A DNA stretch of 63,781 bases, filler included, from Dirinaria sp. TL-2023a (lineage: Eukaryota): NCBI GenBank assembly GCA_051941275.1. It is 10 parts of 10 records of this genome, joined end to end, with 100 filler letters (N's around TTAATTAATTAA, not from the genome) between each part and the next. Parts side by side here need not be neighbours in the genome. Positions count along the whole stretch, not along the records: positions 51,132 to 57,408 come from JAVEBF010001507.1; 9 more parts are not named here. The stretch is one strand, 5' to 3'. The notes below the pieces were generated by a model. The model saw only the letters and a list, made by a program, of their open reading frames with translations. It made no database searches and had not been told where the DNA came from. Shown here piece by piece: positions 12,704 through 58,747 of the stretch. A program made the translations under genes and the position numbers. The stretch's first letter is position 1; every line of letters begins with the position of its first letter.

Positions 12704-13071
12704 NNNNNNNNNNNNNNNNNNNNNNNNNNNNNNNNNNNNNNNNNNNNTTAATTAATTAANNNNNNNNNNNNNNNNNNNNNNNNNNNNNNNNNNNNNNNNN
12801 NNNGATAAGAGAATTCGTAAGTCTAAGGCAGGGCAAATGATGTATCTATCCTGTCAACATCGTACCCCAATTTCGCAACTGGCCAACTAACTGACTGACT
12901 AGCACAAATGAGCGGGCCTAGAACATCCATATTGCTGATTCCGTTCTCAGCAAGGGTTTGGACCTTTCCTTCATGGATCAATAGGCATAGTTTTGCGAAA
13001 AAATGGTACTCGGCGAGATTGAATGAAGGAGGAGAAAGCCGCTTTGTAGAGTTTCCAGAAGAAGGCGCCAG

Positions 13072-16000: not shown

Positions 16001-18399
16001 CGGTAGCGATCGTTTTTCTCGTGCTCTCGCTCGTACCATTCATCCATCGCGGGACTCCTGGGAGACTCGGTTCCTCGGGAGATGGTCGAATCGCGGAGGT
16101 TGTGTTGGTCCAGAATCGTTTTACCGTCTTCGAGATTAATGCCTTTAGGCCTATTGGAGCGAGCAATGTTGGTGCTCGCAACCGAAGACAGAGATTTGAT
16201 TGAAAGCCCAGATCCTTTGAATTCGCCTTTCTCATCTAATGACAAGGAGCCGGAGCTATGCGTGGTTCGGAAATCCGGATTTGGTGGCTCATCTTCCTCC
16301 CTGTAGCTTGTAACGCTTTGTATAGGACTTAGTCCACGACTATGGGGCTCGTGAACTTGAAGGCCAGCACCAGTGCCATACAAGTCCTTTTCAGAAAAGT
16401 GCTCCACAGCCGTATCGCCAGCTTCTTCCATTTTCGCATGCTGTCCCTGATCATGCAGGCTCCGATCACTGCGAGCACTGTGGTTGCTGTGAATACTGAG
16501 ATTGCCTTGTGATAGATTGCTATAATGTGTTCCCAGGCCTCTTTGAAGGCTGAGTGGCGTTCGAGTAGGTGTTCTTGACGCTGGGGAAAGAACTTCACGA
16601 GGAGAGCCTCGAGCTACTTCTCGAATTTCCTGTCGACGCCGTTCCGAATGTGGTGGAGATGGCTCCTCCGTTCTTGCCGACAAGATGGAGTCACGTGTTA
16701 ATTCGGAGTCCTGAATTTCACTTCGCATCGGCATTGGTGGGACGTCATGTCTGTTAAAGATTTCTTCCGTACTTCCCGCATAACTCACGCTACGGCTATG
16801 GCTTTTGCTGCTTCGTCGGCGATGTTCCTTCCGGTCCACGCTTGACCTCGAATCGTGATGTTTTAGTGCGGCTGCTGTAAGTATTCCCCCCGCCATACCA
16901 GCAGCGGCGACGTCTCGCAGACGGTAGCTATCTTTACTCCGTTTCTGCCGTATCTTGCCATTTTCGCGGGTCAAGGTCTCTTGGGAAGCTCCTCGATGGG
17001 AACTGCGCTCGGAAGGCGAGCCAATGCTCTCCTTCCTCCTACTCTCTTTTCTTCCTTTTGTCGAATTTCCGGAGAGAACCGTCCCCGCGTTATTCTCGTC
17101 CCGATTCAGTACCACCTTGGGTCTGCTCTTAACATCAGGTGCGCTGGCATGCTTTGACATTTTGCGGGGAATCTCCACACGCGGGGCACTGCTATCGGAG
17201 GCTAAAGACTGGTCCCGCTCAAACCGGCTCCGATTTTGTTGCATCTTTTGTTCTCGTTTGAGGGATGTGAGCTCGGGCAGAATTAAGCGTTTGATCGCAT
17301 CCTCAACCGTCTCCAAGAGCTTGGGATTATTAATCGATGACTTGGAGGTGCCTGATCGAAAGGAGTACTGGTCGCCAGACTTGCGCGTTGGAGACAACTG
17401 AGAGGTCAAGAGGCTTGATTCGCCGCCGCTAAGAAGCTCTTCTTCAGGTTGATGCCGACTGGACCTGCGTTTGGATGATTGGGGAGACATTTCAATTTTC
17501 TGCTCCTTGCTGGCGCTACGGCTCCGGGTTTTGCTGCTATGGGTGCGCCGTCCCTCGCTTGTCTGCCGTGACTTCCCTTCGATTTTTTCGATGACTTTCT
17601 GTGCGATCCGCTCCTTGCTCAGACTTCTGCTTCTCCGCCGGGTAGGAGCCTTTAATGTATCCTTCTCATTAACCACGGCGTCGCGGCTCATGCTTCGACT
17701 TCGATGCCGCTTTGGGGTCGCAGTCCCTGCGATGGTGCTTTCTAGCATACTGTCGGGGGGCATGGAAGATATTTCCGACGGATTCTGCTGTATATACCGC
17801 TGCTCTATTGGCGCACCCTTGCCTGACAGCTCACTATCCTGATCCTGGGGTAGAACTTCCACTTCCACGGGGGGGTATCTTCCTGCTAAACTCGACTCTT
17901 CTGCAGCTGAGGTATACGAGCTTATACTCTTGTCGTCAGTTCCCTCGGTAGCTTGTCTCTCTGGCGTAGCTTTTGGGCCCAACGAGATGCGCCTTGTGTA
18001 GGATGGCTTTCGGCTTCCACCCGCTTCTGTGATTTGGATGTGATCGTTCGCGTCTTTGATTTTGCGGGCCGCGGATGGTGTAACCTTGACTCGAACGCTG
18101 GGCCTCGAGTGGACGTTGGGGCCTTTACCGGCTTCAAAGTATTCAATGAGCAGTGAGGTTTGCGAAGGTTGTGAGGCACGAGTCACTGTGCTGTCCTGCT
18201 CCCGATCACGTCTCTCCCTTCTCTTCTTCGTCGAGATCGTGACGGGGCTGCCGTCTTCGGGGATGGAGTAGGAAGTGCGGTCAGTGCGACGCGAGACGTC
18301 AGTGGCGAGATCGTCTCCTGTCACACTATCGCCTGATGTTTGAAGGGTCGATGATTCTGTAGGCGCAGGCAATGGAGGTTTGCGGGCCTCAACACCCAT
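13072..18399 (-). CDS. Large (~1700 aa) Ser/Arg-rich, mostly disordered conserved Pezizomycotina protein of unknown function with a coiled-coil core
   Basis: Exons 18399-14851, 14799-13360 and 13263-13072 join in frame via GT-AG introns. Conserved-looking islands: TSLLIEYFE, PSVRVKVTPS, INNPKLLETVEDAIKRLILPEL, SHGMPSPLYDSATG..IQSKDIVALMDHLTVRDAQRNARDTEILVTLVRSAAEMRNSFEEMK. Confidence 0.85.
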
Positions 18400-19759
18400 T
18401 GCGATGATGAAAGAGGTGTCGAATGAAGGAAAAGGTTTGAATCATGCACCAAGCTTCTTTTACGCCTCGACGAAGCAGCCGGACGAGCGGTGGAGGTATA
18501 CCAGGGTTCGAGCGATCTGATTGGAGTCGGTAAAGCAAAAGCGGGCTACTACATGTGCTTGTACTGTACAGGAGATCCGTAGGTCGTAGCCGTTTGACAA
18601 ATCTCGAGGGCTGGGACCAGAGCAGTAGACGGGCTGCCAGGCTGCGGTAAAGTCATTGAAGGTACCATAGTAAGTTTGACTCTAGCTCCTAATACCTTTT
18701 CTCAGAGTGCAATAATAAAGACTTGAAATGTTGGTGATTGGAGTCTTTTTTTTTTTTTTTTCACTGGGGCTGAACGTTCAGTGCGTGGCTGCAGTGGTGG
18801 ATCGTCTCCCAGAGCATTATTGCTGCACAGTGAAGGGGCTCGAGCTGCGAGTCTACCGGGATCTTTGCACTGCAAATGTGCAATGCTCAGATCTTCGCCC
18901 CGCACAATCGCGCCGTGAGAAGACCGCAGCGGCTATCAAGTCTAATACTGTAAATGACAAGAACAAGAAGAATAATGAGCTGTGGGAAGTGAAGACCGGA
19001 TCCGAGAAAATGATGTTACCTGCCCAAAAAAACAAAGTAATAACCGGGTAGCAATTATTATTGCAAGGCGCTGTCGGAGCTAATAATTGGGGGGGGGGGN
19101 NNNNNNNNNNNNNNNNNNNNNNNNNNNNNNNNNNNNNNNNNNNTTAATTAATTAANNNNNNNNNNNNNNNNNNNNNNNNNNNNNNNNNNNNNNNNNNNNG
19201 GTGTTGTGCACTTTTTGGATCAATGACTGGTGATTCCAGTGATATCGTCCATCTTATATCCTGATATTGATCAAAAGATCCAGAGACCTATGTCTCATGA
19301 GAACCGTCTTAGTGGTATCAATTCTGAAGCTAGCATAAAGCCCCAAGGAAGTCTTGCGCTTCTTTCGCTCGTTCACTCTCCCCGTTCTTATCACCATAGA
19401 TTTTCGTTAGCCCAATGAAAAAAAAATGAGAAGTGCACTTACAAGCTTGTTGGCAGATCATTAATGCTAAGATCATGACACTGCATGTAAGCAGGCTCCA
19501 AATTTCTGCAAGTTCCCACCACCGCCCTCCGTAAGAGACTTCGTACAGTTTTCCTTTGTCAGATTGTTTGCTTCTACAAAGTTTCAGAGATATATATGTC
19601 GCTTATGACTGTTCGGTGGGATCCGGAAACCTAGACAGTCGGCACATTTCTCAATTGGCCCCAATATTGTCGACAATAATTATCTAAGCAGTAGTCGGCG
19701 CCACTACGATACAGCAGAGATTATTCGACCTACAGCCACAACTCAGCATATATACCGAG

Positions 19760-24386: not shown

Positions 24387-26542
24387 GTTCGCTTCGTGTA
24401 CAATTCGAGTGTAGTAGGGTCTCCTCGAAGAAGAACGAAGCGAATTAGAGTGCAAAGCAAATCGACGAGACGCTCTTAGTATTTGGAAGCCTATGGTGGC
24501 AGAAATATGTCAAAGCTGGTTTGAAACTGTGAGAGTTTCTTGATTGCTAGATGTGGGCGAGATTCCATAAAGTCCGGAAGCTTGAACAGTGACGTTAGGT
24601 GGCTAAGGTAAGGTAAGGCACATGTAGGTAGGAAACTTAAGCCAAGGGTTACACCAGAGTAAGGTAAGAAAACACCCAGAATCTTATCATATCTAATCTA
24701 GATCCGCCCCTTCACCCAACGTTACAGTACTGTAATCCAATTATCCAAGGTATCTAAGTACTTCACTAAGGTAGGTGCATGGAACCTTACATAAGGTAAA
24801 GGTAGGTCAGCGTACCTACCTTACCTAAGATACTACCACTTCCTTAGGCCGACGATGAGGATCACCTGTACGTGGTGTCGGCTACGAACCTATTGCAATG
24901 CCTATAGAGCCAAGGATCCTCCTGACGATGAGGACATAGTGGAAGCAGTGTGTCCTCGTGGTGACAACTGTGGCCTGATCTGCTACACGCGTCTGGACTC
25001 GAAATTCGCGTCGTCAACGTCGATTGTTCTAAGTCAAGAGAGAAGGTAGAAGAAAGAGCTTGACTTGTTTCACGCGGCTCCGCCTTCAGCGACATCGATA
25101 CTGTTACTGCCGAGAACATCCCCTTCGATTCATTCTTCATCAGCTACAGTACTATGTTTTATAGACTGCTAGCAAGTCCTCCTCGATATTCAACACGTCA
25201 CGAGTACTACGATTTAAGAGATGGAGACCTCGATATTACGAATACAAAGATGTTAATAGACCGAGAAAGAGCTTCAGTTCTAGAGGTTGTTTCTTTACTT
25301 GTTTTCACAGGATGAACCATGAGAATCGAAACGCTCCTCTGAAGTGACAGAAGAAGACGTCGATTAGAGGACCGAGGCGATTGTGCCGAAGGAAGCCACT
25401 CATTAGAAACATCATTATTATTACAGAGAAACCATAGATAGTTAGTTCATGGCCGCATAGCTAGTCGGGAGACGGGCTCCGAGTGCCTAATNNNNNNNNN
25501 NNNNNNNNNNNNNNNNNNNNNNNNNNNNNNNNNNNTTAATTAATTAANNNNNNNNNNNNNNNNNNNNNNNNNNNNNNNNNNNNNNNNNNNNATCTTTTAC
25601 TTGACAGGTTTGGTGAGATGGGTGGTTGATATGGGGCCGGAGATAAGAAAAGGGATAGGGAAGGGAAGGGGGGGAGTGATGGATTGAGAAAAGAGGTAGA
25701 GGGGATGATTTATGATTAGATGCTTTTTGGGATGTTTGGGTTTGGGTTTGGGTTTTGGATGAGAGGATGGAGGGTAGATCCTTCATGAGAACGTTGAAAA
25801 CGGACTTGTATCAGCTCTCCCTTGAACGCATGAAGTAGAGAAGAAAGACAGAAAAAAAGAAAATAGCATCCAATGCCCCTCCTAACTTTATTTTATATAC
25901 ATATAGCAACAGACATCCCCTCATCCCACCCAAAAAAAAGAGAGAGAAAGCAAGAGCCTCGAAAGGGAGGAACTTTTCTTCAAAATCTCGAGTTTGTAAT
26001 GCAGATTGTGTGCTGTGAATGGGGAAGGAATAAAAGGAGAAGATTCTTACCTGAAGAGAGGGGCTGTGGGGAAGGTGGATTGGTAGACGTTTTTATTCGT
26101 TTGGAATAAGCAAGTGGAGTAGGATGAGCCGAGTCAAGTCCCACGCAGTTCAGCGAAGAAGGATCAAAGAGCTTGTATTTGGCGCAACTCTCTCCCGATC
26201 CCTCTCTTTCTCGAAGGAAAAAAAAAAAAAAGGCTGTCCGCGGAACAATGGCTTTGTTTTCCACACATGGAAAAGGAGGAAAAATGGGAAGAACAAACAG
26301 AGACTCTGTTCTCCTCAGCCTTTATATAATCTTGTCAAGCCCCCTTATTATCCCTTTTCGCCAACGTCGCCGCAGTCGTGTGCTCTTTTTCCTTCGAAAG
26401 TAATTTCGGTCTCGGTGGATACACATATACTCTAAAACTTTCCCCCCCCCGGGGCTGCGTTGATACTCCCTTTCAACTTATCTTTAAAGAGAGAATTAAC
26501 GCAGAATCCCCAAGGGAAAGAAAAGAAAGCGGATACAGAAAC

Positions 26543-30980: not shown

Positions 30981-33077
30981 TTGATTGGTAGCTGAAGGAG
31001 ATTCCAGCGCGTCATGATTGAATGGCATGGCTTCGACCATTTGAGCACCAACTAGAAGGTTCTGCTTGATTCTGTGTTAATGTGTCTGTAAGAATATCGA
31101 GTCAGCTTAGCAGATTTCAAGAGCCTTTGGCTTGGCCAAATGTGAATGAAACACTTACATGAAGCTCATGGAATCTTTTCGCTGTTCGACAGTCATGAGA
31201 ATGCCACAAAAAGGTGCCTAGTTTGGTAGAGGGAAGTGTCTAGAAGCCGATGCCGGGTCGTCAGGGTCATTGATGTCACCTCCGGTGTGCATTCGCCATT
31301 CCGTACACAAAGAAATATCCTCACCTCAATCCATCTAACAGCCCAATACCCAACATAATTCCAATATGTATTCTCTCTTCTAGATCTTCAAACCCCATCT
31401 CAGCAGTTCTTCAAACCCTATATAACACGACGAAGATAGACGATATCTTCCGCACCTCCTCTAACATCCACAACATCTTCAACATCGCCATCGATATCAT
31501 GTTACAGAAACTCCCTTTGACCCATCCACCCACTACTCTATATATCAGCAACTGAGGTAGAGAGAGTTATTTGACACCTAGGGCAGCATTTCAAGGCAGT
31601 TTTTGCGTGATATGTAGTCATCTCTGCCTATCGAAGAGGCTCAAAATCGCGAAGATTAAGATTATGGTTTTTGACAATGCTTGTCCATGGGAAATGGAGG
31701 CACTTTCGTCTACCGAGCTTAGTACGAGGTCTTGCTGTAAGGTAAGGTAAAGTGAAGTAGGTATCGTTACCTTTGCCTTGAAGTAGGTGATGAAGTCAAG
31801 GGTGCATTAACCCTACAAAGACCCTAAAATCCAAAACCCCTCTCTTGTTCCATTCTACTACCCCTTCATCCCACAATCATCCNNNNNNNNNNNNNNNNNN
31901 NNNNNNNNNNNNNNNNNNNNNNNNNNTTAATTAATTAANNNNNNNNNNNNNNNNNNNNNNNNNNNNNNNNNNNNNNNNNNNNGGGTGGGGGAAAGGGGAT
32001 TCTGAAGAGCGTGGGAAGGGACAGGGATGGGAGGTTGAGGGTCGTGAATGAATGAATGAATGAATGCCATTCGGAGCCCGAGGGGGCTGGGGCATAAAAG
32101 GCAGGAGTTCAGGACCCTGGAGACTGGAAAAATGGAAAATCATATGGGAGTGGACCCCAAGGAGGGTGATCAGGCAGAGGATATTTGTTTTCTCCAGACA
32201 TCTACCTCCCAAGCCCAGCAGGCAAGTACATCCATACAGTACTGTAAGCTACAGTACGAGCGTCCACAGTACCTTCCCAGTATTCTCTCGCGAGAGAGAA
32301 ACTGGAAGCTTTTTCTTTTTTTTTTCTTTTATGGTGGATACAAATCTCCACCACCAACCTCTGCCAGCATCGGCTCCTCAATCCCGTCTTATCTGTACCT
32401 ATCTATCTATCTGTTGTACATAAAATATATTACAGTTACGTTCTAAAATCGTTTTAAAGTAATGACGCTGCGGAATCCTGATCAATTCTATAGAGGACAC
32501 ACAGAGGGGAGGGGGTTGCTTTTTCGATTTGAATCCGCGTGGAATATTCTCTTGTTCGTCTTTCATTCATGAGTACTTGTAGAACTGGAACGCATTTTGA
32601 GTTTGAATACGAGTACAGTAGTTATGTGCGATATCAGAGAATAAGAGTTCGGGGGAGGCTCTGGCGCGCATGTCGTCGCATGGGATATATATTGAATATT
32701 CAAGGCTTGGGATTTCTGCGGGCTCATTCATAACCAACATCTGCATGGGCGAATCGGAGAAAATGCGTATGTTGAACAAATGTAAACATATTGAATTCCA
32801 ATATCCTTCAAAATATTTGAACGAATTTCTGTAGAGCGAGGGGTATCTGACGCTCTACTCTGATGGGGGTTGAACGTATTTGACGATATATAAGGTAAGG
32901 TATGAAAACGAGAGGATTTTCCCGCGCAGGTTGGTATAAAATACCCTAACTGGCCTGCCGCAGGAAAGAGGGGAAGGGGTATCGTCTGATCCAAAAAAAA
33001 CTTTGCTTTGTATGAAAGCTACGCCGTCGCAACTTTCGTTCCAGAAAACCGCCATAGTGTATCCCGTCCACAAACTT

Positions 33078-37546: not shown

Positions 37547-38419
37547 ATATTAGTGCAACGCCAGCGGAATGAGCGGTCGGCGCGGAGGAAAATAACCAGC
37601 TATGTTCCTTTGACTAAGCCGCGAGTGGTCGATCTGCTAGATCTGCACCGCTTTCGAGGCGCAAGTTATGGATCTTGAGTCGTGGAAAAACTATACCCAA
37701 GAGGTTAGGATCAGTAAAAAGCCTGTCACGGATCTTTCGAGGTGTGAGAATACCAGGACTTCCAACGGCTATATGGAAGGAAAACGCCTCTCTGTATTCG
37801 GCATCGACAACACTTCGGACTATCCGATTCTAAGAGGGGTAGAAGGATCTTGTACGGATTGAGGGGTCGAGCTAGGCATAGTCCTCGATATTCAGCCACC
37901 CCGTAATCGTACGAGGAAAAATATGACCAGACAATCCCAACCAAAAAGACATGAAGGCAAACTCTATGTACTGTACGCATGTGCAGTACTGAAATATGCG
38001 GCCTTGAGTATCCTGTGAGACTCACATTCTCCATCTTATGCAGAGGTACAGACACGGCAATTAAACTAAAACCTACACAAAGAGGTAGTTTTAGCATCGA
38101 TTCGATTGCGTTAGTGCATAGACGCAACCCATCTCCGGTTGAGGTCATCAGCTCATTCTGGATCCTAAACAATAGCAGAAGCAAAGAACTGAAAAGGCCC
38201 AATGGACCACAACATTGTTTCTACGTACCTATAATGCCTCTCTAAGTACGAAGTCATCAGAGACAACAGAANNNNNNNNNNNNNNNNNNNNNNNNNNNNN
38301 NNNNNNNNNNNNNNNTTAATTAATTAANNNNNNNNNNNNNNNNNNNNNNNNNNNNNNNNNNNNNNNNNNNNGCCTAAAAAAAATTCAGGCTGGCATTCTA
38401 GAAAATGTTCATCAAATCT

Positions 38420-43445: not shown

Positions 43446-44840
43446 AAAAGGCTGTCAAGGCTTTATCATTGTTACTGCCTACATGGTGGTATCGGGGATC
43501 CTATTCATCATCGAAACAGTGAATACAAGTCTCGCTGAAAAGACGCTGCTGAAATTTAAGCTCGACTTGCCAAGATTGCGTTAGATGTCTCCTTTTGGAG
43601 GACAAAGACTAGTTATTACACCAGCACGATCATCTAATTGTTTCATCGAAGTCATATCATTAGTATCAGCCTCTCGACATTAACCAAGATATTTGGTTCT
43701 GCAATACGCCATATCCTGATCTCGACTCTGTGACACTTCAGGTATCGTCCGAGGTGACAACCGGAACCTCGCCCCAATAGCTTTCAAATAAATGTCTTCA
43801 GCAGTCAACGCATGAAACGGCCTCTAGAAACATGTTAGCCTCACATCAAACCAACAATTGTTATGAATTACCAAGCTCGGCATCTACCTCTCATACAGCC
43901 ACAAGAGCCGTAGCGTTGAGGACCGCTGGGTCGAAGACGAGAAGGCTGACAAGGCTGGAATGCATATTTGCTTCGGTGAGCGTTCTGTAGTCATGGCTGG
44001 GTTGTGGAAAATTGATGCTGCTATCTGTTACGCTGATATTTCCCTGCTCTGAAATTCTCTACTCTGAAAACGTTGAGAACTCAGTTCACGAGATCGAAGG
44101 CTATATCTTCGTGTCTCACAAAAATGCAGTCGCTTCAGCCCGGCCCTACTCTCGCATCCCACATCACGTGCCACCGACACCTTTCCAGCAATACAATCAA
44201 AACCCTGACAGGGCGCATATTCATTTGTATCGTAGGCTTATCATCTATCAAATAATCTCATAGTGTATTGCTAGCACTCAAGAGAAAAAATAATAAGGAG
44301 GGAAAAAGGCAAAAGCTCAGGCCTACTCGGCCAATGTACCCGCTTGTTGATAACATGTTCTCTAATTTAGAAGTATATAGTGTAATTAAGGTATACTATC
44401 TCTGATTCCATTTCAACACCTTCAATTTGGGGAGTAAGCTCACAAATGTCTACTTTACTTATTTTGTTCCACACTACGGTCATTACCTATCTTCTCTAAT
44501 ATACATATTTCTCCTCTCCAGTCGGTCCTGCCTGTTCAAGCAGATGTGTTGCCCCATAGTGTTATACCTAGAGTGCTGCCTGGCACTAGCGTGGTTGCCT
44601 CGGTGAGTTCTACCTTATTAGAACTCACCCACATACATTTATAGACTTTAGACNNNNNNNNNNNNNNNNNNNNNNNNNNNNNNNNNNNNNNNNNNNNTTA
44701 ATTAATTAANNNNNNNNNNNNNNNNNNNNNNNNNNNNNNNNNNNNNNNNNNNNTCTCTCTCCCCACCTCTCTTCTCTCTCCCCCCCTCTCTCTCGGGAAT
44801 TCTTCCGCTAATTACCATTTCCCGTTAAAACGCGCTGCAG

Positions 44841-46180: not shown

Positions 46181-46370
46181 TCAATACCCATAGCTCTGTC
46201 TCTGCTCATGCTGGAACAGAGTATTGCCACCGGAGACTTGCGAAAAGCCTATATGACTACCAGGGTTGTACTGCATTGGCGCACTCGTGGGAGCTCCCTG
46301 TGAAAATGGAGTCACTCTCGGGCTACCCGCTAGTCCATATGAAGATGGATCCGCAGCAGTGGAGAAATAT

Positions 46371-46402
<32 letters not shown>

Positions 46403-49400
46403 CTGATACGGCGTCGGAGGTAGGAAAGGGCCAGTCTGCGCGTAACGTGCTGGATGCGACTGTGCCGACTGAATGGTGTGCATGCTGTTGTAAAGGTTCT
46501 CGGGAGATTGCGATTGTGCAACAGGGCCCAGTTTACTATCGACGGGCATGAAAGATGCGGTTGTGGGAGCGTCGTAGGATGGATAGGATTCTGCGCTGTA
46601 AAGGTTGGCGTGAGGCGGGGGAAACCTCGAGCTGGGCGTAGAATGAGGTATTTGAGGCGGATAGGTCGCCGACATGTCGCCTGGAAGCCTGCTTACGGTG
46701 GGGCCCTGGACCATGTTGGGAGGGTAGTATGCTGCCGGCGGCTGCATTGGTGCGAATTGGCTGGCCATGCCGGTAGAAGGCATGCCGTAATTGGACACGC
46801 TCGAAGCAGGGTGAGGGAACGGGCTTTGGAGAGGAGACATGACGGGCTGATTGGACGAGCGCTGTTCGATGGGACTGATTATGGTCTCAGGCGTAACATC
46901 TTTCTTTTCCACAATGCCTATCACGGGCATACTGATCTGCTCCATATGTTTGGAAAGGTGGACGGTAAGCTTCTTCCAACTATTGCAGATGTTTCCGCAG
47001 AATTTGCAGGCTTCGTCTTTCGGATTCTTCTGCGTCTCGTATCGACATGCCTCAACAAGTTTCCAGACCTGATCGATCTCATCAGGGAACTTCTCTGCAG
47101 CCTCCTCCATTTGCCTTCGAGCTTTTTGAGCGGACGGCCCGCGGACTGCGGGCTTACTGGCCTTCGCCGTCTTCATCTTCGGCTCGGGCAATTTGTGTTC
47201 ACGTACCAGATGCTGCACGAAATTGTCTTTGCGGTAGCATGTGTGATTGCAATCATTGTAACTGCAGGACCACCATTCCAACTGGCGATGACGCTCATTC
47301 TCGTGCCGCACCCAATCGGCCTTGCGCTTGAAGGATTTCGGTTCGGCGCAGTTGACGAAAGTACAAGTGAAGGGCTGCACGTCCTCGTGTACGTGCTTCG
47401 ACCAGTCTGAGGGCTTGTGGAATTTTTTGACTTTGAAACAAAGCGAGCACTCGAATTCGGCAGGCAGACGTTTGACTGGCGGCATTGGGACACCAGGAGG
47501 GAACTGTGCCGGAGTTACAGCACCCTCCAAAGCATTCACGTCGTCGTCTGACTGACCAAGGCCTGCAACGGAGAATCCAGTTTGCGACCAATCCGGTTCT
47601 TTGGTATTCGACTTGGACTGGACATAGGTGGGTTCACCTCCTTGTACAAGACAATGCTTACCCGAACCACACTTTCCAGCGGTAGTTGCTTGAAGGTGCT
47701 TGACCTTGAATTCAACCAGCTTCTTATAGCGGCGAAGTTGTTCCTGCGAGATTCTTTCAATCATGAACAGCGGCAAGCGAGGATTGAGCTCCTTGACATT
47801 TGCCTTGAAGCCCTCCAGAGTCGGGATGATAGGATCGCCTCGCAAAGTAAGGTCGATCACTATGCCTTTCTCATCTCCACCTTCCTCATCATCGTCTTCG
47901 AGCTCTTCGGAATGCTCAGCCTGGATAGATTTCGTCTCTTCCTTTTGGGAAGCCGCAAGAGCAGGCATAGGCGGTCCACCTTGTTTCATCCAAAGCTCTG
48001 TCAAATTCGTCGATGATCCTGTACCTTTCGGAAGATCACTCCGACTCCTCGAACGCTTCATAGTGTTCTTAGCAGAGGCCCAAGGGCTGGTGGGGGTAGG
48101 AGTAGCTGAAGCGCTGACAGGGCCACTGGTACCGGCGCCCAAGGAAGCCACACTGATCATGGCGGCCACGGCACTGCCAGTGTTGATGCGTGGAGATTTT
48201 GGTTTCTTACCCAGACTTGGCACTCGTTGAAGTGGTCTAGGAAGACCTAAGCTTCCGGAACTGTCCTGCTTGCTGTGCTCCAAAGTAGCTGGACGCGACG
48301 CAAGTCTTGGAGACCCGCTTTCTTTACGCTTCAGCATGCTGCCGCTCCTTTTTGGCCTCAACTTTGCTGCGGCTTGCTCCAAGAAAGTCCCTCGGCGACT
48401 GCCTTGAGCCTTTTCACCGGCTTCCGCTTGGCTACTGATTGACATGCGATGCAAGACGCTTGCCAGATCACCGTCGCTCACACGGCGAGTGCCCCAAGTA
48501 GCAGCCCGGGAAAGAGTCTCTAGCTCCGCAGCTTTCTGCTCGAATTTGTACATGGCTTCGTTGGATGTCCCCGGTTGAGCTTTCACGCCAAGGTTTGTTG
48601 AATCATACAAAGGATCTTCCCACAGCTTGAGTCGATATAGAGGTGGTCGTTCGATGGCGGGATTGGCAATGGAGTATTCCTCGCTGTTTTGCGCTCCCTG
48701 ATCGATCACGTGCATGGCGGCGGGAGGAGACGCTGGCCGATCAATGTGCTCGTCTTCTTCGTCACTTTCGTTCAAGTCTTCGTCATCCTCATCACCGCTT
48801 TCTTCATCAATAAGCACGCCCGGGCCCGGTATATGAAAGTCAGCAGGCGAGCGGCGAGTTCCTCTAAAACTTTCGAGGTTTTCACGCGAGAGACTATCGC
48901 CGGTGCTTTTCGCTCTTTGGCGCCTACTGAAAGTTGGTAACTCAAGGGGCTTAGACGGCAGCGCTGCTTCGCCCTGAACCTCACTGCTTGCTTCACTTTG
49001 AGCCAACCATTCCTGTACGTCGGCCATTCTCAGTGCAGTCTCGGCGTTAACATCCTGATCATGGAAATTCGGGATTTCGTCACTATCAACTTGTAGCCTT
49101 GCATGCGGATCTAGACCAACCCGATGGGATGCATCCAGTGGTCTCCCATGTACTGTGGGACTGACGGGTGAGTCCGCATGGGTACCGGGAGCATCGTGAA
49201 CCTCAAACCTCTCTCCATCCTCAAGACTCCCAACGTCTGGCTCAACAGCCAAATGGGACGAACCATGACTACGCTTGCTTGCGGCTCGAGCCAAACCGGC
49301 ACTACGAGCAGGTGAGTCACCCCTGCTGTAGGATTCTATGCGAACGACAGGGCTAGCAGCAGGGGCCGTCTCCAATCGTGTAAAGCGGTCCGGGCTGGTG

Positions 49401-50248
49401 CCGTTGGAGCTGCGTGTACCTCTGGAGCTACCGGTGAGAGCCGGTGTTGTTTGCTGTGCGGAGCCTCCGGGGCCTCCGGAGACACCAATTGCCATATTGT
49501 CTCCGCTGTTCAATACTGTGTTCGCCGCAGCTTCCGCCTTCAGATCTCTTTCGTCCGCAAGAGGACTTTCTTGCCCTACTCCTGAGCCTGGGCTGGCAAT
49601 ATCGGTCAAGATAGGGCTCATCAAGTGCGAGGACAAGGTTGCGGTACCGAGAGAGGTCCGGGTAGCGTTGGTGTCATGCGATTTGTGTGTGGTCGTGCTC
49701 ACTGGGTCGGAAATCTCTCGATCCCGAAAGTCGTCCTCGTCTCTCGTTTCGTCCCCTGGCTGGCTGGCTAGGTGGCCCGGGAAATCGGGTCCTGATAGCC
49801 AACCAAAATCGTTCTCTAGGTGGCGATAAAAGTCATCGCCGTAGTCTGGACTTCCTGTGTGCTCACTCGACTCGGTATAGCCATTCTCGGATATATAGGT
49901 ATTCGGACTCAAGAACTCATAGTTGGTTTCTGTGGTGAACGGGTCTTGTAGAGTTTGGGAGGGTGTGGCTTGCTGATGGACGGGAGTCAGTAGGCTCTGA
50001 GAGTGTCCCAAGCCATTTGTATAGTTGTTCTGTGGCGGCGTCAGGGCAGCGGCAGAACCGTTGGGCAGAGCTGGGGAGAGGGATGCAGGGTGGGGTTGCG
50101 GGTTCGGTGACAGCTCGGCCGCTGCAACTTGGAACAATTGCTCGTCGTCCAGCGAGGAAGGGAAGAAGGGATCGTAGGAGTGATCATTGAAGCCCGTCGC
50201 GCGGGAAGGCTGCCGGCTCCCCGAGGGAGAAGACCTTATAGTCGACAT
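46181..50248 (-). CDS. Large intronless C2H2 zinc-finger protein (putative transcription factor, ~1355 aa)
   Basis: FECSLCFKVKKFHKPSDWSKHVHEDVQPFTCTFVNCAEPKSFKRKADWVRHENERHRQLEWWSCSYNDCNHTCYRKDNFVQHLVREH, then ACKFCGNICNSWKKLTVHLSKHMEQI. Disordered flanks and a Q/P-rich C-terminus. Confidence 0.92.
46371..46398. repeat. (CTG)n microsatellite encoding the polyQ tract of the C2H2 protein
   Basis: TGCTGCTGCTGCTGCTGCTGCTGCTGCT corresponds to QQEQQQQQQQQQQ on the minus strand. Confidence 0.9.
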
Positions 50249-51134
50249 TCTTCGTTCGTAAGGGCCGAGGGAGCAAGCCAGCAATGCACAACGCTTGAGC
50301 GAATTCTCACGGCGCACTGTTGTTTCAATGCAGCTGTCGAGGTCACTTGACCTCGGGGATGGTGGAGAGGCAGGCTGATGATCGGCATGTAGGGTAGGAG
50401 TTTATCGACGCCGCAACATGAAACGCATCCCCGACAAACGAGCTTCGAGGACGAATTTAGCCTGATGGCGTACGGAACCGGCCGACGAATACGTGGAACG
50501 TTGGTGCGGCGAAGCGCAAAGGCTATTCTCGTCCAGCGGATTGGTGTTGAACTTGGGAGGGACAGAGAACGGGGTGGAAAAGGGCGTCGATAATTGGGGA
50601 TTGGGAACCTCGATCAGAGTCAGGGTAGGATGGGATCAGTTATCACACAGCGAAGATCGGGAGGTGGGGGCTGAAGGGTGGTAGGTAAGGTCGTTGAAGG
50701 AAGGACGAGGTGCATTCAAGGTGGTATCATATCATGTACACGTAAGTAAGGTAGGAGATCTCTTGACCAAGTGACAGAACAGTAATAATGGAACAGGAAT
50801 GAATCATGGTGAGGTAGTAGTAGGTAGGTTGAGTAGAGTTGCGCAGGAGGGAAAAAGACCAAGCAGGCAGGAGTAGCTTAGTCAGCATCACTGGATTACT
50901 GGAGGGTTTGGTAAGTAGATTACTATGTAAGTAAGTATTGTAGAGTAACGGAAGAGCCCAGCTAAGGTAAGAGCACCGATGGCAGCTCGGCAGAATCTGG
51001 GTGTCGGTGTCTGGGACGGGGAGATCGGGGANNNNNNNNNNNNNNNNNNNNNNNNNNNNNNNNNNNNNNNNNNNNTTAATTAATTAANNNNNNNNNNNNN
51101 NNNNNNNNNNNNNNNNNNNNNNNNNNNNNNNATT

Positions 51135-51303
51135 CCAAGGTTACCACGTAGCACGGTGGTGGTGTAGCGGCAGGACTCCGCGAAAGGCCTTGGCTTTCCA
51201 TAGTCTAACCCCCACCCGATACGGCTGCACCATTTTTTGGCAATCCTAAGGTACATAAGCTACAAGGTCGGAGGTTCGAATCCTGACATGCCTATTTTTT
51301 TTT
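51135..51303 (+). ncRNA. Putative Pol III structured ncRNA / tRNA-derived element, copy 1
   Basis: A box TGGTGTAGCGG 51160-51170; T6 51233-51238; B box GGTTCGAATCC 51273-51283; T-run 51295-51303. Stems CCAAGGTT/GGCCTTGG, GCGG/CCGC and TGGTGTAGC/GCTGCACCA. Confidence 0.6.
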
Positions 51304-51480
51304 CCTTTGCTCTTAAAGCTGTTGGCTTATTCAAACTCAAACAGAGAAAACATTACATGTAAATTGATTGCAACTTAAATGACTTAAGGTTACCGTAGAG
51401 TAATATGGTGGCTTAACGGTATAGATAATTGAAATGAAGGGAGAAAAAAGAATATATATTATAATTGTAACAAAGGTTTT

Positions 51481-51650
51481 TCAAGGTTACCACGTAGTAC
51501 GGTGGTGGTGTAGCGGCAGGACTCCGCGAAAGACCTTGGCTTTCCATCGTCTAACCCCCACCCGATACGGCTGTACTATTTTTTGGTATGTTTTGAGATA
51601 TCTTGTAAGGTTGGGGGTTCGAATCCGCATACTCACGTTTTTTTTTTTCT
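51481..51650 (+). ncRNA. Putative Pol III structured ncRNA / tRNA-derived element, copy 2
   Basis: TATA-like ATATATATTATAA about 30 bp upstream; A box 51506-51516; T6 51579-51584; B box GGTTCGAATCC 51616-51626; long T-run from 51638. Core near-identical to copy 1. Confidence 0.6.
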
Positions 51651-51808
51651 TTTTTTTCTTTTCTCGCTTAACGTTGGAAATATAAATAGAAAACAAGGAG
51701 TAAGAGTCTTAGATCATATAGCAAGCTTGTGACTGAATGGCATAGAGAATTCAAATGGAAAAAAAGAAAACAGAAAAAAAGTATATATATAATGATTGGG
51801 ACAAACAT

Positions 51809-51960
51809 CCCAGAGGTTACCACGTAGACGGTGGTGGTGTAGCGGTAAAGTGTCCAGTGTCCGCGAACAACTTTGGCTTCCCATCGTCCCACACCCACCT
51901 TATACGGCTGCACCCATTTATTTATTTTTGCTGAGAGTTCGAGTCCTCATGTGCGCAGAA
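51809..51960 (+). ncRNA. Putative Pol III structured ncRNA / tRNA-derived element, copy 3 (divergent)
   Basis: TATATATATAA at 51782; A box 51835-51845; GCGG/CCGC stem kept with an expanded loop; ATACGGCTGCACC then a T-rich tract; B-box-like AGTTCGAGTCC 51936-51946. Confidence 0.55.
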
Positions 51961-52608
51961 TTTCCCCCCCCCCCCAATTTGACACGCTGGGTCGGATGTC
52001 TTGATTGCTATATTATATGAAGGCGTCTCCGCACTCTTTACGTGTTCCCGACAATGCCGGCTTGTATTCTTCCGTTACAGTTACAATTAGGACTAGTAAT
52101 TGCCGATATACTGTTGGCTTGAAGTAGAATCCCACCTGAGCGTTCAGAAGCCGGTCATTATTACATTCAATATTTTGATACTCTAGGGGCATGCCGAAGC
52201 GTTCCTCTTAGATATCGAGAGCTCATGCACTACCCATAATTCCATCATAACCTGACTTTATGAATGAGTTACATTTATATAGAGCGCTAGTAGAGAAATT
52301 ATGGAAGACGATTTCAGAGGCAAAAGGGATCGCATACAACTGCTGAATATAGACTTTTCCCCGGATCTGCCTCTACGTCTTGGCAAGCGGCTAGATCCGC
52401 CCAATTACGTAAATGTCCCGAAGTCTCTAATTTCAGCCCATGTTGCACATCCACCCAATTTGTCCGCATACTTTGCCTTTCTCTTCCTTCTCCCCCTCCT
52501 TCTCCGCCTCCTTCTCTCGCTTACGTACCAGAAGAATGATTCTCCATATCCCCATACGCTCTTGAGATCGCAGACATATCCTCGCTAATTTGAATGCTAT
52601 AGCACCGC

Positions 52609-53734
52609 ATGGGGCCACCAACTGGAGGTCTCAACCTCGACATTACAGCCCTTAGCGGCATCTGTGGGTTCGTACTACCCACCGTTGCTCTCTTGCGACG
52701 AATGCTAAATCGGGTGACCTAGTTCAATATCAATAGCCTGCTGGATCGTGGTATTCACACCTCAAATACTCGAGAACTTCCAGCGCCATTCTGCCAGCGG
52801 CCTATCCCTTCTTTTCATTATTACCTGGCTCCTTGGCGATGTCTTCAATATCCTTGGCGCTATTTTACAAGGCGTCCTTCCCACCATGACGATTCTAGCA
52901 GTCTACTACACCCTCGCTGATCTCGTTTTACTCGGGCAATGTTTCTACTACCGAGGCTGGACATTGAGCGATTACCCTAACGAGGAAGAGGAGGAAGAAG
53001 AGGAAGAGGAGAGACCTTTACTTTGGAGGGACGATCCGCCAGTTTCCCAGCGAAAGCATTTGAGTGCAGCAGACGCGGGTAGGAGGCCCAGTGGCGGCTC
53101 GTTCGGGTCATTCCACGAACACCTGCGGGCAGTGGATGGGACGCATTTGTCGCCTGCAACGCCACTGCGGCCGGCTTCGAAAGCTACCGATACTCCTCCT
53201 TCGCATGCTGTCAAGACCCAGTCGGCACTTATAGCCACGATGTACAATAGCAGCGCCATACTTCTTGTCTGCGCAGTAGGGGTTTTCGGATGGTGGCTTT
53301 CTACGCGACAATATCCGTATCACAGACACGGGGATCAAAGCACGCCTGTGGAAAAACAAGTGCATTTTGACCTCTGGGGCCAGATCTTCGGGTATCTGTG
53401 CGCGGTTCTGTATCTGGGGAGCCGGATTCCGCAATTATTGCTCAACTTCAGAAGGAAAAGCACGGAGGGCGTTAGTATGCTGTTCTTCCTCTTCGCCTGT
53501 GTTGGGAACCTTACCTACGTCTTGTCGATCTTCGCGTATGAGCCAAGCTGTGCGCGATTGGCAAGCGTTGACGAGCTGCGGGAGTGTGAGCAAGGAGAAT
53601 GGAGCCATGAATACGGTCGCTACATCCTTGTCAATACCAGCTGGCTCATTGGCAGCGCTGGAACCTTATTGTTGGATCTGATGATCTTTGCGCAATTCTG
53701 GATATATCGCGGGAAGACGGAGGCGGAATCTTGA
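52609..53734 (+). CDS. PQ-loop vacuolar cationic amino acid transporter (Ypq1/Rtc2-like), 2 exons
   Basis: ALSGICG|SISIACWIVVFTPQILENFQRHSASGLSLLFIITWLLGDVFN; GQIFGYLCAVLYLGSRIPQLLLNFRRKSTEGVSMLFFLFACVGN; WLIGSAGTLLLDLMIFAQF. Confidence 0.93.
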
Positions 53735-55056
53735 GTAAAGACTTGCTGCGGATCATCCATCTCCGAAATGTCGATTACGTTGGAAAACAATAAAAAAAGT
53801 ATGGAGTCTTGGGCAGGATCAAAAGTTGCCAAATTTTATAGCATGGGCGCCACGAAGGGGAAAAAAAGGGCAAGTCGGCTACTCAAAAAAACAAAAGGAG
53901 GGAATTCTCGTCGCAGGTTGGGAAAAAGTCCTCGTTTTTGTTTTATGTATATACCGCGAAAGAAGCTTCTGTCGATATTGCTCGTCTTGGGTCATTTTAT
54001 AGGATGGGTATCGAAACTGGGAATTTCGTTTGTGTGTGTATATATGGATAACTAGGAAAAATATCTGTGCATATCATTAAGCTTTGAAACTCACAATTCC
54101 GATTTTAGAAAAGATCCTTGATTTCAACTTGAAAACCACTATCCGAATATTCTTCTACCACCTTAAGGTGCCAACGTCCTTCCGGCCCGCAACCCTGTCC
54201 GCCCGCAACCAGGAAGAAAAAGCCTCCAGGGAGTCCCGGCCCCCTCAACAGAACCAATGTCCAATATCCACCTTTTTTTTTTCGCCAGCCACAATATCTT
54301 CCATCCACCTCGATTCTCTCACACCCCCTTCTCAATCTCGTACCGCAAGATATTCTATACCCTGCTATGCCTTAAAGAATACAATACACTAAACCTCTTC
54401 CGCACGGGGATTCCCTTTCCGCAGAATGCCCCGCCCCGTCACCAGGCTCTCACCCTCGAATCCTAGTCCAGTCCAGCGCCGGAACGTCCACGGCAAAGGC
54501 TGCGAGGATCAATTTAAAAACCTGCTACGAGAACTATTCTTTGGCATTAGATTGTCAAAGGCAAGAGAGAAAACTTAGAAGTGGATAGTGACTACCGAGG
54601 TAGAAGAATTGTGCAGCTGCATCTCATGTACATTAAAATTCAACCTGACACTGAATGCTCTCCATTATGATATTTGCTGGCAGTAAGGTCACGATAGCTT
54701 CAGCAGGTCATGACCTGGACTGAGACAGACCGGGTATGCTCACGTGAATACGTGGGAAAGGGACAATAAAACCTATAGTTGTTTTGGAAAATGCAAGGAT
54801 TCGGCGCCTGACAACGGAGCATTGAGGATACTTGCAAAGCTGACAGCCTTTCAAACGGATTTCGAGGTCTAGAAATCGGGGGACGATTGCGCACGCAAAT
54901 AGAAGGCGCCAGGAACACTCTTATTATTATCAAGCTAAAATCGCTTACGACTACCTTAGTGAACCATGACTCAGTGGAAAGACAATAATACACACAAATC
55001 TTCTCCAGCTCTCCCGATTCAGAAAGCTAGTCCGATCCGCGCGGCACACGCGACGA

Positions 55057-56287
55057 TTAGCGGAGAGCGTTCTCTTTCCTTGGGCCTTCTCCTTCGTCCG
55101 GGTCTACAGCGGCAAACTTGCGTTTACGTAGGTTATCTTCTAATGTAATGAGTATCACCTCCTGCGTGAGTGGAAACGATCCTTCATAGGCCAGGTTGCA
55201 GAGCAGGGACGGAATGATTGTGGCCAGCTTTGTCCCAATCTTAGCTTTCCCATCTGCTAAAACAACACTCTTTGAATCCAAGGCTTTGCCACTCTTAACA
55301 TCGATCATTTTGGCTTGCAACAAGTGATCTTTGAAGAGTTCCTTGCCCTTCCCACGCACGCTGGGCATCGAAGGTTGAGGTAGGAAGGAGTAGAGAACTG
55401 GCGATGCATGAATCTTGATGGCCAAATCCACTGCTGGCTCGATGACCTTTTCACGTAACAACAGAGAGCTTGTGTTGCTGCGCTTGACGATAGGAAAGTA
55501 TGGTACGATGCTGTTGAAGATAGATTCTGCAAGCTCTATCGTCGCTTCCTGGAGCCTGGCAGCGAAGACGACGGTCCCAGATACATCTGCCAACGTCTTG
55601 GTACGCCAGACTCTGGTAGCTTTTTCGTCTGCAGCAAGCTCAGTCAGCCCTGGACCAGATAGACTAATGTACCAAGAGGCCTTTCTTACCTTTATCCGGC
55701 TGGAGAGATTTCATACCGCTGTCAACGCCTTGGGGAGGTTCAGGCACATACGGTGAGAGGAGTGCCTTAAGAAAAGTGTCGTCTTTGAAGAGCTTGTCAT
55801 GTAACATCCACTGCAGGCGGTACTGAACATTATATTCTTGAGTACCATCGGGCAAGGAGGCTAGAAGCCACTTCGCACTTGGGTACTCATTGTCACCATC
55901 GAGTCTCGGAGGACTGTCATGGCGTTTCCGCCAACTGTCCAGATATGCAGGGATCTCATTCTCGATCCATTCGCATATCAAGATACCGAGATTTGCGTAC
56001 TCCTTGACTAACGCCGAACCTGGAACCTGACTCGCAGGCAGTCCTCGAAAGAGTTCGTCTTTCCATACGGCCAATACTTCTGCTAGCATCAAATTCTTCT
56101 CTCGCAAGGTAGCCAGCTCCCCTTCATCTTTCATCCTTGCCTCTTCTAGCAATTCTTGCATTCGCAGCGGTTTTCCGGTGAGCTGATCACTGATGGCGGC
56201 GTTCAGCTGGCGTATAAAATTAAGGTCACGACGCCGATCTTCTGAGCCAAGTTTGGATGTCATAACGTGCTTCCGAGAGGGATCCAT
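55057..56287 (-). CDS. Hypothetical protein with an N-terminal coiled coil (2 exons)
   Basis: The 231-aa and 178-aa ORFs join in frame through intron 55689-55629 (GTAAGA...GCTGAC...CTGCAG), giving ...QPDKDEKATRVWRTKTLADV.... Confidence 0.7.
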
Positions 56288-58747
56288 AGTCGATGCCTTG
56301 ATAAGATTCTGCTCGAAAATAAAGCTATGGGTCGCGGGTTCGTAGCAGAAATACCTCAAGGTAGTGGAAGAGAAGACAGTGCTACAAGGCTTGCCAAAAG
56401 GCTTTCGGGAGATCAGCTGTTTCCACCTTCCTGGCGGGAATCTCTTGCTTACTTAGGGATCTACAACTGGTAAGTAAATGGAAGGAGCGATGTTGTGAAG
56501 ATCTCTGAGGATTTCCTGCATTATGTCAAGTTCGCCTGCTGGGCTTGCTTACCTTATCTATGTATCCTTGTCTCTTTTTCTGTACCTCACATCGCTTTTC
56601 TCTTTAGCTTTCCCCGTCAGTGTGTGACTGCTGGAAGGCAATCAGCGGTACGAATGAGAGAAATCATGTGGAAGGTGAGGAGTGTACCCTATAAGCAAGG
56701 AAGGTAGGTACGCCAAAATTGTTGAGTCCTCATTCCACTAGCGTGGCTTTCAACTACCACAGGTGTACTAGCCCCATCCAATTGATGAGGTTTCTGAATC
56801 CGCTCCTTCAACCAAATCCTTTATTGCTGTTACATCCGATTTGTCCGTTGAGCTGGAAAGACGCTTGGCGTTGGCGGCGGCTGGTACTTTACCATAGCTT
56901 CGTCTGTCAAGGATCTTGGGTTGACCATTTCCATATTGCTCTGAGCCTTGTGGCCGTTTAAGAAACGCCTGAGATGGCGGACAATCGCATATTGACGATA
57001 GCGGTTGGCTTTCGAGGACTTTACCGAAAGGCTCGCTCCGAGTTTCTAGTTGGATATCAACAAGTAGCACGGATTATCCTAGCCTTGCCTTGGTACAAAC
57101 ATGAAAGGGCGCCTATCAGTCTTGGGGAGTTGTGATGTTGAGCCCGCCTCGACTTTCTCTGAAGCTAGAGATTCCGCCACCCATCATGTTGTTGCTTGAA
57201 GATACGTCGATAGGGTTGGCAGAATTGATTGGTGGCGGAGTCCCAACGTAAGTGCGGATCTCCACTTCACAATGCGAAGAAATCCTTCCAGCTCAGACCA
57301 TCGTACAGGGGAGTGGAACATGTCAGGCAGAAATACACGCGGGGCTTTCAAGCTTCAGATTTTGGTAGCGATATTAATCGTTTGAATCAGGACCTAGTCC
57401 AACTGATTNNNNNNNNNNNNNNNNNNNNNNNNNNNNNNNNNNNNNNNNNNNNTTAATTAATTAANNNNNNNNNNNNNNNNNNNNNNNNNNNNNNNNNNNN
57501 NNNNNNNNGTATGCAGAAGGGGGCCTTTTCTGGGACATGGTCAGATAATAATACTGCAATCCCACGCCAAGTGCCAGTGTCAAAACCCGGAAATCACTTG
57601 CCTAAGGCTCCTTGACTGTTTGTACCTTGCCTGAAGAGCGAAGAGGCTCAACCTCCATGTGCAGCATGATGCAGCAAGCGGCAGCAGCATCATCATCACC
57701 ATTGAGGAGCTGGTGCCAAGATACCGTATCCTCTATGAGTTGGCCCTACCTGAGGCCACGGGTATCTTCAGGAAGTCATGTATTCCCGGGCCATGTCGAT
57801 TACTGGCTCTGATGAAAGCCGCAGAAAAGCCTGGTCTAATCCGTGAGAGCTCTACCAATCTCCCCCCACCCCCATCCAAGCTGTGGTCGGCTATCGCAAT
57901 GGAAGTAAGCAACGGCCTGCATGCTGTTGCATGACCGTGGGAAGCCTGCATATCTCGAATACGACATGTTGCATCTGACTGATCACTTCAATTCAGCATC
58001 AGCTCCACCCCCCTTCGTACCACCGAATTTTAAACCTCATACTACGACTGTCCACACGAAAAAAGCTTCACCCGCCAAATCAGGCATCTGGTTCAACCCA
58101 ATACCTGCACGGCACGCACCCAACACCCCCCTCCCCCACCATCGTCCCTGGCGATATCGTCGAAGCGTGCCACCACAGCAGATCGCCTGCTGTCACATCA
58201 CACGTACAGCTGTCACCTGTTGTATCGTCAGCTCGGTAATCGCTGTCTGCACCATGGATCCTGCACGATGCTGTGCCACCCCACTCATCTCTCCTGTTAG
58301 GGCAGGGAACGGAGGACTGGCCCGAAAGAGCGTGACATACGTGACGGCGGAACCTTTCCGGAGGTAAGATGGGCTTTTGTTAAAAATCGGGCTGGAACCT
58401 GGCGCTACAGGAGCCACGCATTTTGCAAGAAAGAGGTTGAAACACTGCACGAGTGACATTTGACATCGGGCAAAAGCGGGCATTTTTAGCTGAGGGGTGG
58501 AGTACCCTCAGCAACGATCCTGCATTGGTGTGCCATAGAGCTCGCAGGTGCGCGTTGACAGACGTCAGGGGGAAACTGCTGTCAATGCTCACTGAGGTGG
58601 CTGCCAACAATGGTCGCCTTCGACAAACCCCCAGTTTGCTGACAGCAACTCACGAACCTTTCAAGACCGACCCATTTTCACTGCACAGAGTGATGTTCTT
58701 CCAACATTCCTCCCTGCGAGCTGTATTCAGGCAACCCCTAAACGACC

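Follow-up and report, generated by a model that had tools for sequence, protein, structure and literature searches.

Three tandem candidate Pol III genes with an SNR6-like promoter layout in Dirinaria sp. TL-2023a

Known promoter systems and the layout of the array

Fungal Pol III RNAs are thought to form a small and ancient set, comprising tRNAs, 5S rRNA, U6, RNase P RNA, SRP RNA and a few more. According to PMC9136082, the SNR6 gene of S. cerevisiae is preceded by a TATA box at –30 and contains box A, whereas its box B lies outside the gene, past the terminator; 202 bp separate the two boxes. In the rodent 4.5SI and 4.5SH RNA genes, as presented in PMC10137851, boxes A and B lie within the genes and a TATA-like box at –31/–24 is required. 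Fungal tRNA-related SINEs are reported to carry target-site duplications (PMC5063351), and in the dicistronic tRNA-5S rRNA genes described for Yarrowia lipolytica the tRNA is placed upstream and is co-transcribed (PMC2566860).

The window analysed here is the whole stretch of 63,781 bases from Dirinaria sp. TL-2023a (assembly GCA_051941275.1), composed of ten pieces of approximately 6.3 kb with N44-TTAATTAATTAA-N44 linkers between them, and the array is situated at the very start of the piece at 51132-57408. An earlier note on this DNA placed copy 1 at a contig edge; it does adjoin the edge of the piece, but that edge is the cut at an N44-TTAATTAATTAA-N44 linker and no true contig end. As copy 1 adjoins the linker, the array may extend further upstream, and since the piece begins at 51132, the upstream promoter region of copy 1 is outside the window. 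Proteins encoded on the pieces include a PIG-M mannosyltransferase, a PQ-loop transporter, WD40 proteins and an amino-acid permease; the nearest atlas cluster of the PIG-M protein is mostly from Ascomycota, and the source was accordingly taken to be an ascomycete fungus. The GC content is 56–60% in the cores, 31–32% in the spacers and 49% in the remainder of the piece.

The array consists of three direct copies whose starts are 346 and 330 bp apart, as originally described, with GGTTACCACGTAG found exactly at 51139, 51485 and 51815 on the plus strand. These are its only exact matches in the window, and in a control 4 of 100 shuffles gave three or more matches at up to two mismatches. A second block, GGTGGTGTAGCGG, is exact at 51158, 51504 and 51833; if up to two mismatches are allowed, it has nine matches in the window, the remaining six being elsewhere and having one or two mismatches each. 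A repeat finder grouped the three copies into a single family of 108 nt, in which the other two members are 94% and 60% identical, without gaps, to the reference copy. The cores are GC-rich and approximately 95–103 nt long, and begin with a 32-nt block, AGGTTACCACGTAG(N)ACGGTGGTGGTGTAGCGG, invariant in the three copies except for one variable or missing N. This block is followed by a GCGG/CCGC hairpin and a more variable 3' half ending with GGCTGYACY. The hairpin stem is invariant, while its loop, as the earlier note stated, measures 7, 7 and 15 nt in copies 1, 2 and 3. In the alignment of the three copies the core of copy 3 carries an 8-nt insertion and a 1-nt deletion, which excludes a shared reading frame.

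The candidate promoter and terminator elements are listed in Table 1. The A-box-like element TGGTGTAGCGG is invariant in all three copies and departs at two positions from the A-box consensus TRGCNNAGTGG; counted from the inferred start, it occupies +24 to +34, that is, an intragenic position. Every core is followed by a T-run and then by a B box, in agreement with the initial description: the B box begins some 30–40 bp past the T-run in copies 1 and 2, and is 3' of the T-run in copy 3 too, so that a run of T5–T6 separates the A-box-like element from the B box in all three copies. When scanned with GGTTCGARTCC at up to one mismatch, the window yields four matches, three of which are the B boxes of the array, and both changes in the B box of copy 3 remain within RGTTCGANTCC.

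Upstream of copies 2 and 3 an A-tract and a TATA run are present about 20–30 bp before the AAGG/AGAGG core starts, also as previously noted. We infer the start to be the purine of AAGG/AGAGG at 51483 and 51812, and at 51137 by homology. Relative to this start the terminator would be at about +96 to +118 and the B box at +125 to +137, with the TATA run at about –30 to –20, a spacing read from the sequence with the start inferred; the A-to-B distance is approximately 101–113 bp. The layout is that of the SNR6 type, with the TATA some 30 bp upstream (copies 2 and 3), an intragenic A-box-like element, a T-run and a B box beyond the terminator, and the likeness to SNR6 drawn in the earlier note thus agrees with the arrangement given in PMC9136082.

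Table 1. Positions of the array features in the window and of the model helices in the three-copy alignment
Feature	Position	Strand	Remark
Core 1, predicted RNA body (AAGGTTACC...GGCTGCACC)	51137..51231	+	covariance model 132 bits
Core 2, predicted RNA body	51483..51577	+	covariance model 131.9 bits
Core 3, diverged copy, predicted RNA body	51812..51914	+	covariance model 106.5 bits
A-box-like element TGGTGTAGCGG, copy 1	51160..51170	+	
A-box-like element, copy 2	51506-51516	+	
A-box-like element, copy 3	51835-51845	+	
T6, predicted Pol III terminator, copy 1	51233..51238	+	
T6, predicted Pol III terminator, copy 2	51579..51584	+	
Interrupted T-run TTTATTTATTTTT, predicted terminator, copy 3	51917..51929	+	
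B box GGTTCGAATCC, copy 1	51273..51283	+	followed by 11 nt, then T9 (51295-51303)
B box GGTTCGAATCC, copy 2	51616..51626	+	followed by 11 nt, then T11 (51638-51648)
B box variant AGTTCGAGTCC, copy 3	51936..51946	+	no long T-run after it: TTT, then a C12 run
Upstream conserved block before copy 2	51408..51474	+	A-tract and TATA run at 51453-51466
Upstream conserved block before copy 3	51729..51805	+	A-tract and TATA run at 51782-51793
PQ-loop transporter gene	52748-53734		array about 800 bp upstream of the gene
Model helix YCAAGGTT / RRCYTTGG (5' helix)	alignment columns 3-10 with 62-69		
Model helix ACCAC / GTGGT	alignment columns 11-15 with 24-28		
Model helix GCGG / CCGC	alignment columns 35-38 with 54-57		
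Model helix GGTGTA / TGYACY	alignment columns 29-34 with 102-107		

Conservation, proposed fold and identity of the core

Conservation within the array is selective. Cores 1 and 2 are identical at 90 of 95 positions, and this high identity does not extend past the first T-run: from there to the B box the same two copies agree at 25 of 41 positions, and in the spacer after the second T-run at 71 of 115, that is, 61–62% in the flanks (core-versus-flank contrast, Fisher p = 8e-10), a non-homologous control pair involving the copy 3 flank showing 51% identity. Core 3 is more distant, matching core 1 or 2 at 80 of 105 positions. Outside the cores, the B box is identical at 11 of 11 positions in copies 1 and 2, while 8 of the 11 bases that follow it differ, and the upstream blocks of copies 2 and 3 align with a local score of 40 versus a shuffle maximum of 28. 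A candidate partial copy of the core 5' part in spacer 1 (AAGGTTACCGTAG... at 51386) was discarded, its score of 20 being not significant against a shuffle maximum of 26. Such islands would be expected if purifying selection acted on a small gene together with its promoter elements; alternatively, they could have been kept alike by gene conversion limited to exactly these parts.

For the RNA fold, four helices (Table 1) were scored on the three-copy alignment A3. In this model, drawn from the same three sequences on which it is scored, 68 of 69 cells form standard pairs, compared to 35–48% in slid controls. The GGTGTA/TGYACY helix crosses the 5' helix and hence forms a pseudoknot with it. In these two helices, which are those named in the earlier note, 7 of 8 varying pairs are still standard, owing to one-sided changes, five of them as G-U pairs on the plus strand; the one broken pair is in copy 3. 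This G-U pattern favours the plus strand and the helices first proposed. The minus strand was rejected, as the boxes and T-runs would be wrongly oriented on it and the G-U pairs would turn into A-C. No changes on both sides of a pair are seen in the three copies, either with the four-helix model or with RNAalifold, and the minimum-free-energy folds of the copies are no more stable than those of shuffled sequences (z from +0.24 to –1.05). RNAalifold itself prefers another, rod-like consensus, with two one-sided compatible changes and three broken pairs.

The repeated core was compared with known RNA families. The early view that it is no tRNA is borne out by ARAGORN, which finds no gene in the window at default settings and none at 51132-52200 with introns allowed; at 80% of the threshold only poor models appear, one of them with the T-run as the anticodon, and a search for tmRNA in the window was negative as well. 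A hairpin resembling an anticodon arm (GAAAG/CTTTC, loop of 7 nt) was drawn by hand for copies 1 and 2; its pairing fails in copy 3, it competes with the better-kept 5' helix, and it was not retained. Rfam 15 gives no match over the whole window at gathering scores. At E<=10, for the array and for copy 2 alone, it gives only junk, namely a Phe leader, plant miRNAs, an 11-nt piece of a tmRNA T-loop and a mycobacterial sRNA, and hence no match to tRNA, U6, U6atac, 5S, SRP, Y, vault or snRNA families.

The exclusion of U6 and 5S made in the earlier note also holds. ACAGAGA is present in none of the three cores, in addition to the lack of a U6 or U6atac match in Rfam; within the array this motif occurs a single time, at 51341 in a spacer, and its 14 matches in the window are within chance expectation. 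For 5S, there is no Rfam match at either the gathering threshold or E<=10. Several likenesses that had come to mind were dropped for want of Rfam support: to 5S rRNA (the loop E region and bacterial helix II), to the SRP Alu domain, to U6atac, and to the telomerase template (CUAACCC), this last motif being lost in copy 3.

When a covariance model was built from the three copies and run on the window, it recovered these three alone, with the next match at 8.9 bits and no further copy in the other nine pieces (about 57 kb of genome). A metagenome scan with the invariant 18-mer yielded at least 119 loci, none related among the matches listed; the loci listed are GC-rich and prokaryotic-looking, no B box lies within 140 nt of any of them, and upstream of them GGTTACCACGTAG is matched with 4 mismatches in 13 positions at best. 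A 23-base pattern has no loci in bacterial and archaeal contigs and none in viral contigs, these collections not being meant for fungi, and a protein search for translated relatives of an 83-aa chance ORF over copy 2 returned no candidate.

A search of the literature on Pol III ncRNAs of filamentous fungi found nothing fitting, and five core motifs searched as text gave only chance primer matches, in three papers. The 17 conserved fungal RNAs of PMC8216456 comprise H/ACA-like and UTR structures, Pol III being unmentioned in the available part of that article, and six Pol III-related terms have no occurrences in the available text, supplements apart, of a small-RNA screen in A. fumigatus (PMC2377427). 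By calling the RNA undescribed we mean no more than that it is absent from Rfam 15 and was not found in the literature searched, supplementary sequence lists apart.

Proposed reading and its alternatives

Taken together, the data are best explained by three tandem paralogous Pol III genes with an SNR6-like split promoter, each predicted to encode an RNA of about 95–103 nt from a family outside Rfam. We assign this reading a probability of about 0.5, the whole case resting on three paralogues at one locus. The assignment of Pol III gene anatomy (TATA, intragenic A-box-like element, T-run, and B box past the terminator) is supported by the island-like conservation of exactly these parts. TFIIIC and TFIIIB have established roles in Pol III transcription, and their action at the array is deduced by analogy. 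TFIIIC would bind the intragenic A-box-like TGGTGTAGCGG and the B box, approximately 125–137 bp from the start and behind the first T-run, and TFIIIB/TBP would occupy the TATA run, some 30 to 20 bp ahead of the start. Pol III would then initiate at the purine of A(A/G)AGGTT and terminate in the T5–T6 run, releasing a predicted RNA of about 95–103 nt with an oligo-U tail. This RNA may fold by pairing its 5' end, AAGGUU, with an internal RRCYUU, and GGUGUA with UGYACY at the 3' end, so as to form the pseudoknot, the GCGG/CCGC hairpin being free to vary in loop length. Its most likely role would be as the RNA component of a small RNP, in which the invariant 32 nt at the 5' end may act as the working surface.

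In a tRNA gene the B box and the terminator are separated by the three final bases of the T stem, the seven of the acceptor strand and the discriminator. Exactly 11 nt likewise separate the B box from a long T-run in copies 1 and 2, which is the geometry of a tRNA gene 3' end, so that the downstream module probably descends from the 3' half of a tRNA gene and has retained only its B box; in the proposed mechanism it would serve solely as a promoter element. Acceptor-like pairings can be drawn by hand at nearly the same register, AGGTA/TGCCT in copy 1 and TGAG/CTCA in copy 2. The T stems of the tRNA-like module pair poorly, copy 3 has neither an acceptor 5' strand nor a second T-run, and the three downstream modules fold neither alike nor better than shuffled sequences (z from +0.46 to –0.86).

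The same tRNA-like boxes and 3'-end geometry (B box, 11 nt and T-run in copies 1 and 2) could be produced by a decaying local tandem duplication of a tRNA-gene-derived sequence, that is, a pseudogene array with no functional RNA, in which the cores were homogenised by gene conversion or recent duplication. The lack of two-sided covariation and of excess folding stability is consistent with such decay, as is the fact that nothing related was found among the metagenome matches listed or in the bacterial/archaeal, viral and protein searches. We nevertheless consider it unlikely, as the conversion tracts would have to end exactly at the predicted start and terminator and, separately, to keep the TATA run and the 11 nt of the B box intact amid AT-rich spacers that have diverged. 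Copy 3, which differs at a quarter of the core positions, yet retains the first 32 nt, all helices and the boxes, fits poorly with this scenario too.

A longer transcript of approximately 160 nt would have both boxes inside, as in a type 2 promoter, if the first T6 were leaky and transcription ended at the second T-run; RNase P and RNase Z would then remove the tRNA-like 3' module and free the core. The strong second terminator (T9 or T11) exactly 11 nt past the B box in copies 1 and 2, as well as the acceptor-like pairings of these copies, are what such processing calls for. However, most Pol III transcription should already end at a T6 run, copy 3 has neither the acceptor-like 5' strand nor a second T-run, and the stretch from the T-run to the B box is merely 25/41 identical. 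As, in addition, the downstream modules do not stand out from shuffled sequences (the z values given above) and Rfam finds no tRNA there, we regard the longer transcript as improbable.

The interpretation in the earlier note is supported in part: the Pol III-type anatomy with an SNR6-like layout and the exclusion of tRNA, U6 and 5S hold, whereas the alternative it offered, a tRNA-derived SINE-like element, is disfavoured, since the terminator precedes the B box and the copies stand in tandem, with upstream promoter sequence common to them. Such a retroposon or its fragment, amplified locally, would account for the tRNA-like boxes, and tRNA-related SINEs have been described in Aspergillus fumigatus (PMC5063351). 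As each of the three copies has a terminator between its two boxes, however, the transcript could not carry its own B box, and an upstream TATA and A-tract shared by head-to-tail copies are not expected of a retroposed copy. Among the direct-repeat families listed for 51133-52100 there is neither an A-rich or simple-repeat tail nor flanking direct repeats, and the other nine pieces (about 57 kb) contain no copy recognised by the covariance model; a SINE origin is therefore very improbable.

Two further readings have, in our estimate, hardly any chance of being correct. In a Pol II gene for an Sm-class snRNA the TATA run would be a Pol II element and AUUUUUUGG an Sm site rather than a terminator. 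The consensus of Sm sites is Pu-A-U(4-6)-G-Pu, most of which AUUUUUUGG fits in copies 1 and 2; still, the A is preceded by C or U, and RATTTTTTGG accordingly has no match in the window, copy 3 has TTTATTTATTTTTG in its place, no conserved 3' stem-loop is seen in the downstream stretch, which is poorly conserved and folds no better than shuffled sequences, the conserved B box would be without a role, and there is no Rfam snRNA match. Equally doubtful is a role at the DNA level only, in which a cluster of TFIIIC sites (three B boxes spread over less than 700 bp, with the PQ-loop transporter gene about 800 bp further downstream) would act as an extra-TFIIIC-like chromatin boundary upstream of that gene with no meaningful RNA, as this leaves unexplained the conservation of the 95-nt core far beyond the boxes, the plus-strand G-U pattern and the gene-like positions of the T-runs and TATA.

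Relation to described systems

The reading of the array as tandem Pol III genes may be extended, tentatively and with less confidence than the reading itself, to a lineage-specific, multicopy family of Pol III RNAs of about 100 nt in filamentous ascomycetes, having an SNR6-type promoter, a B box captured from a dead tRNA gene, a pseudoknot fold and the invariant 32-nt 5' part. If true, this family would have its counterparts outside the fungi in lineage-restricted Pol III RNAs, the 4.5S RNAs of rodents for example, and a young, multicopy, selectively maintained RNA belonging to no known family would enlarge the fungal Pol III set. It would also provide a second natural example of the unusual SNR6 design, in which box B follows the terminator, and illustrate how such a promoter can come about through capture of the 3' half of a tRNA gene. 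On the practical side, the compact TATA/A-box/B-box unit could drive guide-RNA expression in filamentous fungi. If, on the other hand, the array is only a decaying duplication, the locus is ordinary.

Of the described systems, S. cerevisiae SNR6, as characterised in PMC9136082, shares with the array the TATA at about –30, the A box approximately 20–30 nt into the RNA, the T-run and the extragenic B box; it differs in that the array RNA is not U6, the A-to-B distance is about 101–113 bp in the array versus 202 bp in SNR6, and the array has three tandem copies. The rodent 4.5SI and 4.5SH RNAs, tRNA- or 7SL-derived, are similar as lineage-restricted Pol III RNAs of about 100 nt with A, B and TATA-like boxes in the account of PMC10137851, while the B box of the array is behind the terminator and no sequence relation is seen. 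Fungal SINEs, e.g., the AfuSINE2 families as covered in PMC5063351, likewise have tRNA-derived Pol III boxes, but the copies of the array are tandem, have a common upstream promoter sequence and place the terminator before the B box. In the Yarrowia tRNA-5S genes of PMC2566860, as in the array, a non-tRNA Pol III RNA is coupled to a tRNA-gene module supplying the promoter function; the tRNA-like remnant of the array, however, is downstream of the terminator, and the array RNA is not 5S.

Finally, tRNA genes with their type 2 promoters have in common with the array the A-box-like and B-box sequences, and, in copies 1 and 2, the succession of a B box, 11 nt and a T-run, whereas the array has no cloverleaf and carries a terminator between its two boxes.

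Composition and coding content of the window

Ten pieces of about 6.3 kb make up the window, strung together by linkers of the form N44-TTAATTAATTAA-N44, and pieces that adjoin here are not necessarily adjoining in the genome. Approximately 800 bp downstream of the array of three candidate Pol III small RNA genes lies a gene for a PQ-loop repeat transporter, the product of which carries ten consecutive glutamates. The window also contains two very long open reading frames, neither of which matched a Pfam family in a search with E up to 0.001.

Features of the window
Feature	Position	Strand	Remark
Linkers (nine)	6305-6404, 12704-12803, 19100-19199, 25492-25591, 31883-31982, 38272-38371, 44654-44753, 51032-51131, 57409-57508		
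Second A-box-like words in spacers	51386-51424 and 51729-51745		
PQ-loop repeat transporter gene	52748-53734	+	Pfam PF04193, E = 5e-34
Two long open reading frames (1199 aa and 1355 aa)	14800-18399 and 46181-50248	both -	
C-rich stretch with CTAACCC	51200-51216		
12-C run	51964-51975		

Words in the cores and spacers

CTAACCC, which resembles a template word for the TTAGGG telomere, is present in cores 1 and 2 (the predicted RNA bodies) inside a C-rich stretch that is predicted to be single-stranded in the four-helix model. As the alignment of the three copies shows that the word is not kept in copy 3, we give this likeness no weight.

Cores 2 and 3 each have a second A-box-like word in the spacer, roughly 75 bp upstream of the core (TGGCTTAACGG and TGACTGAATGG). 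In the spacer between copies 1 and 2 it is preceded by AAGGTTACCGTAG, an echo of the core's start; with a score of 20 vs. a shuffle maximum of 26, however, the similarity between this spacer and the core does not reach significance.

C run behind copy 3

Directly 3' of the B-box module of copy 3 there is a run of 12 C, occupying the place where copies 1 and 2 have the second T-run.
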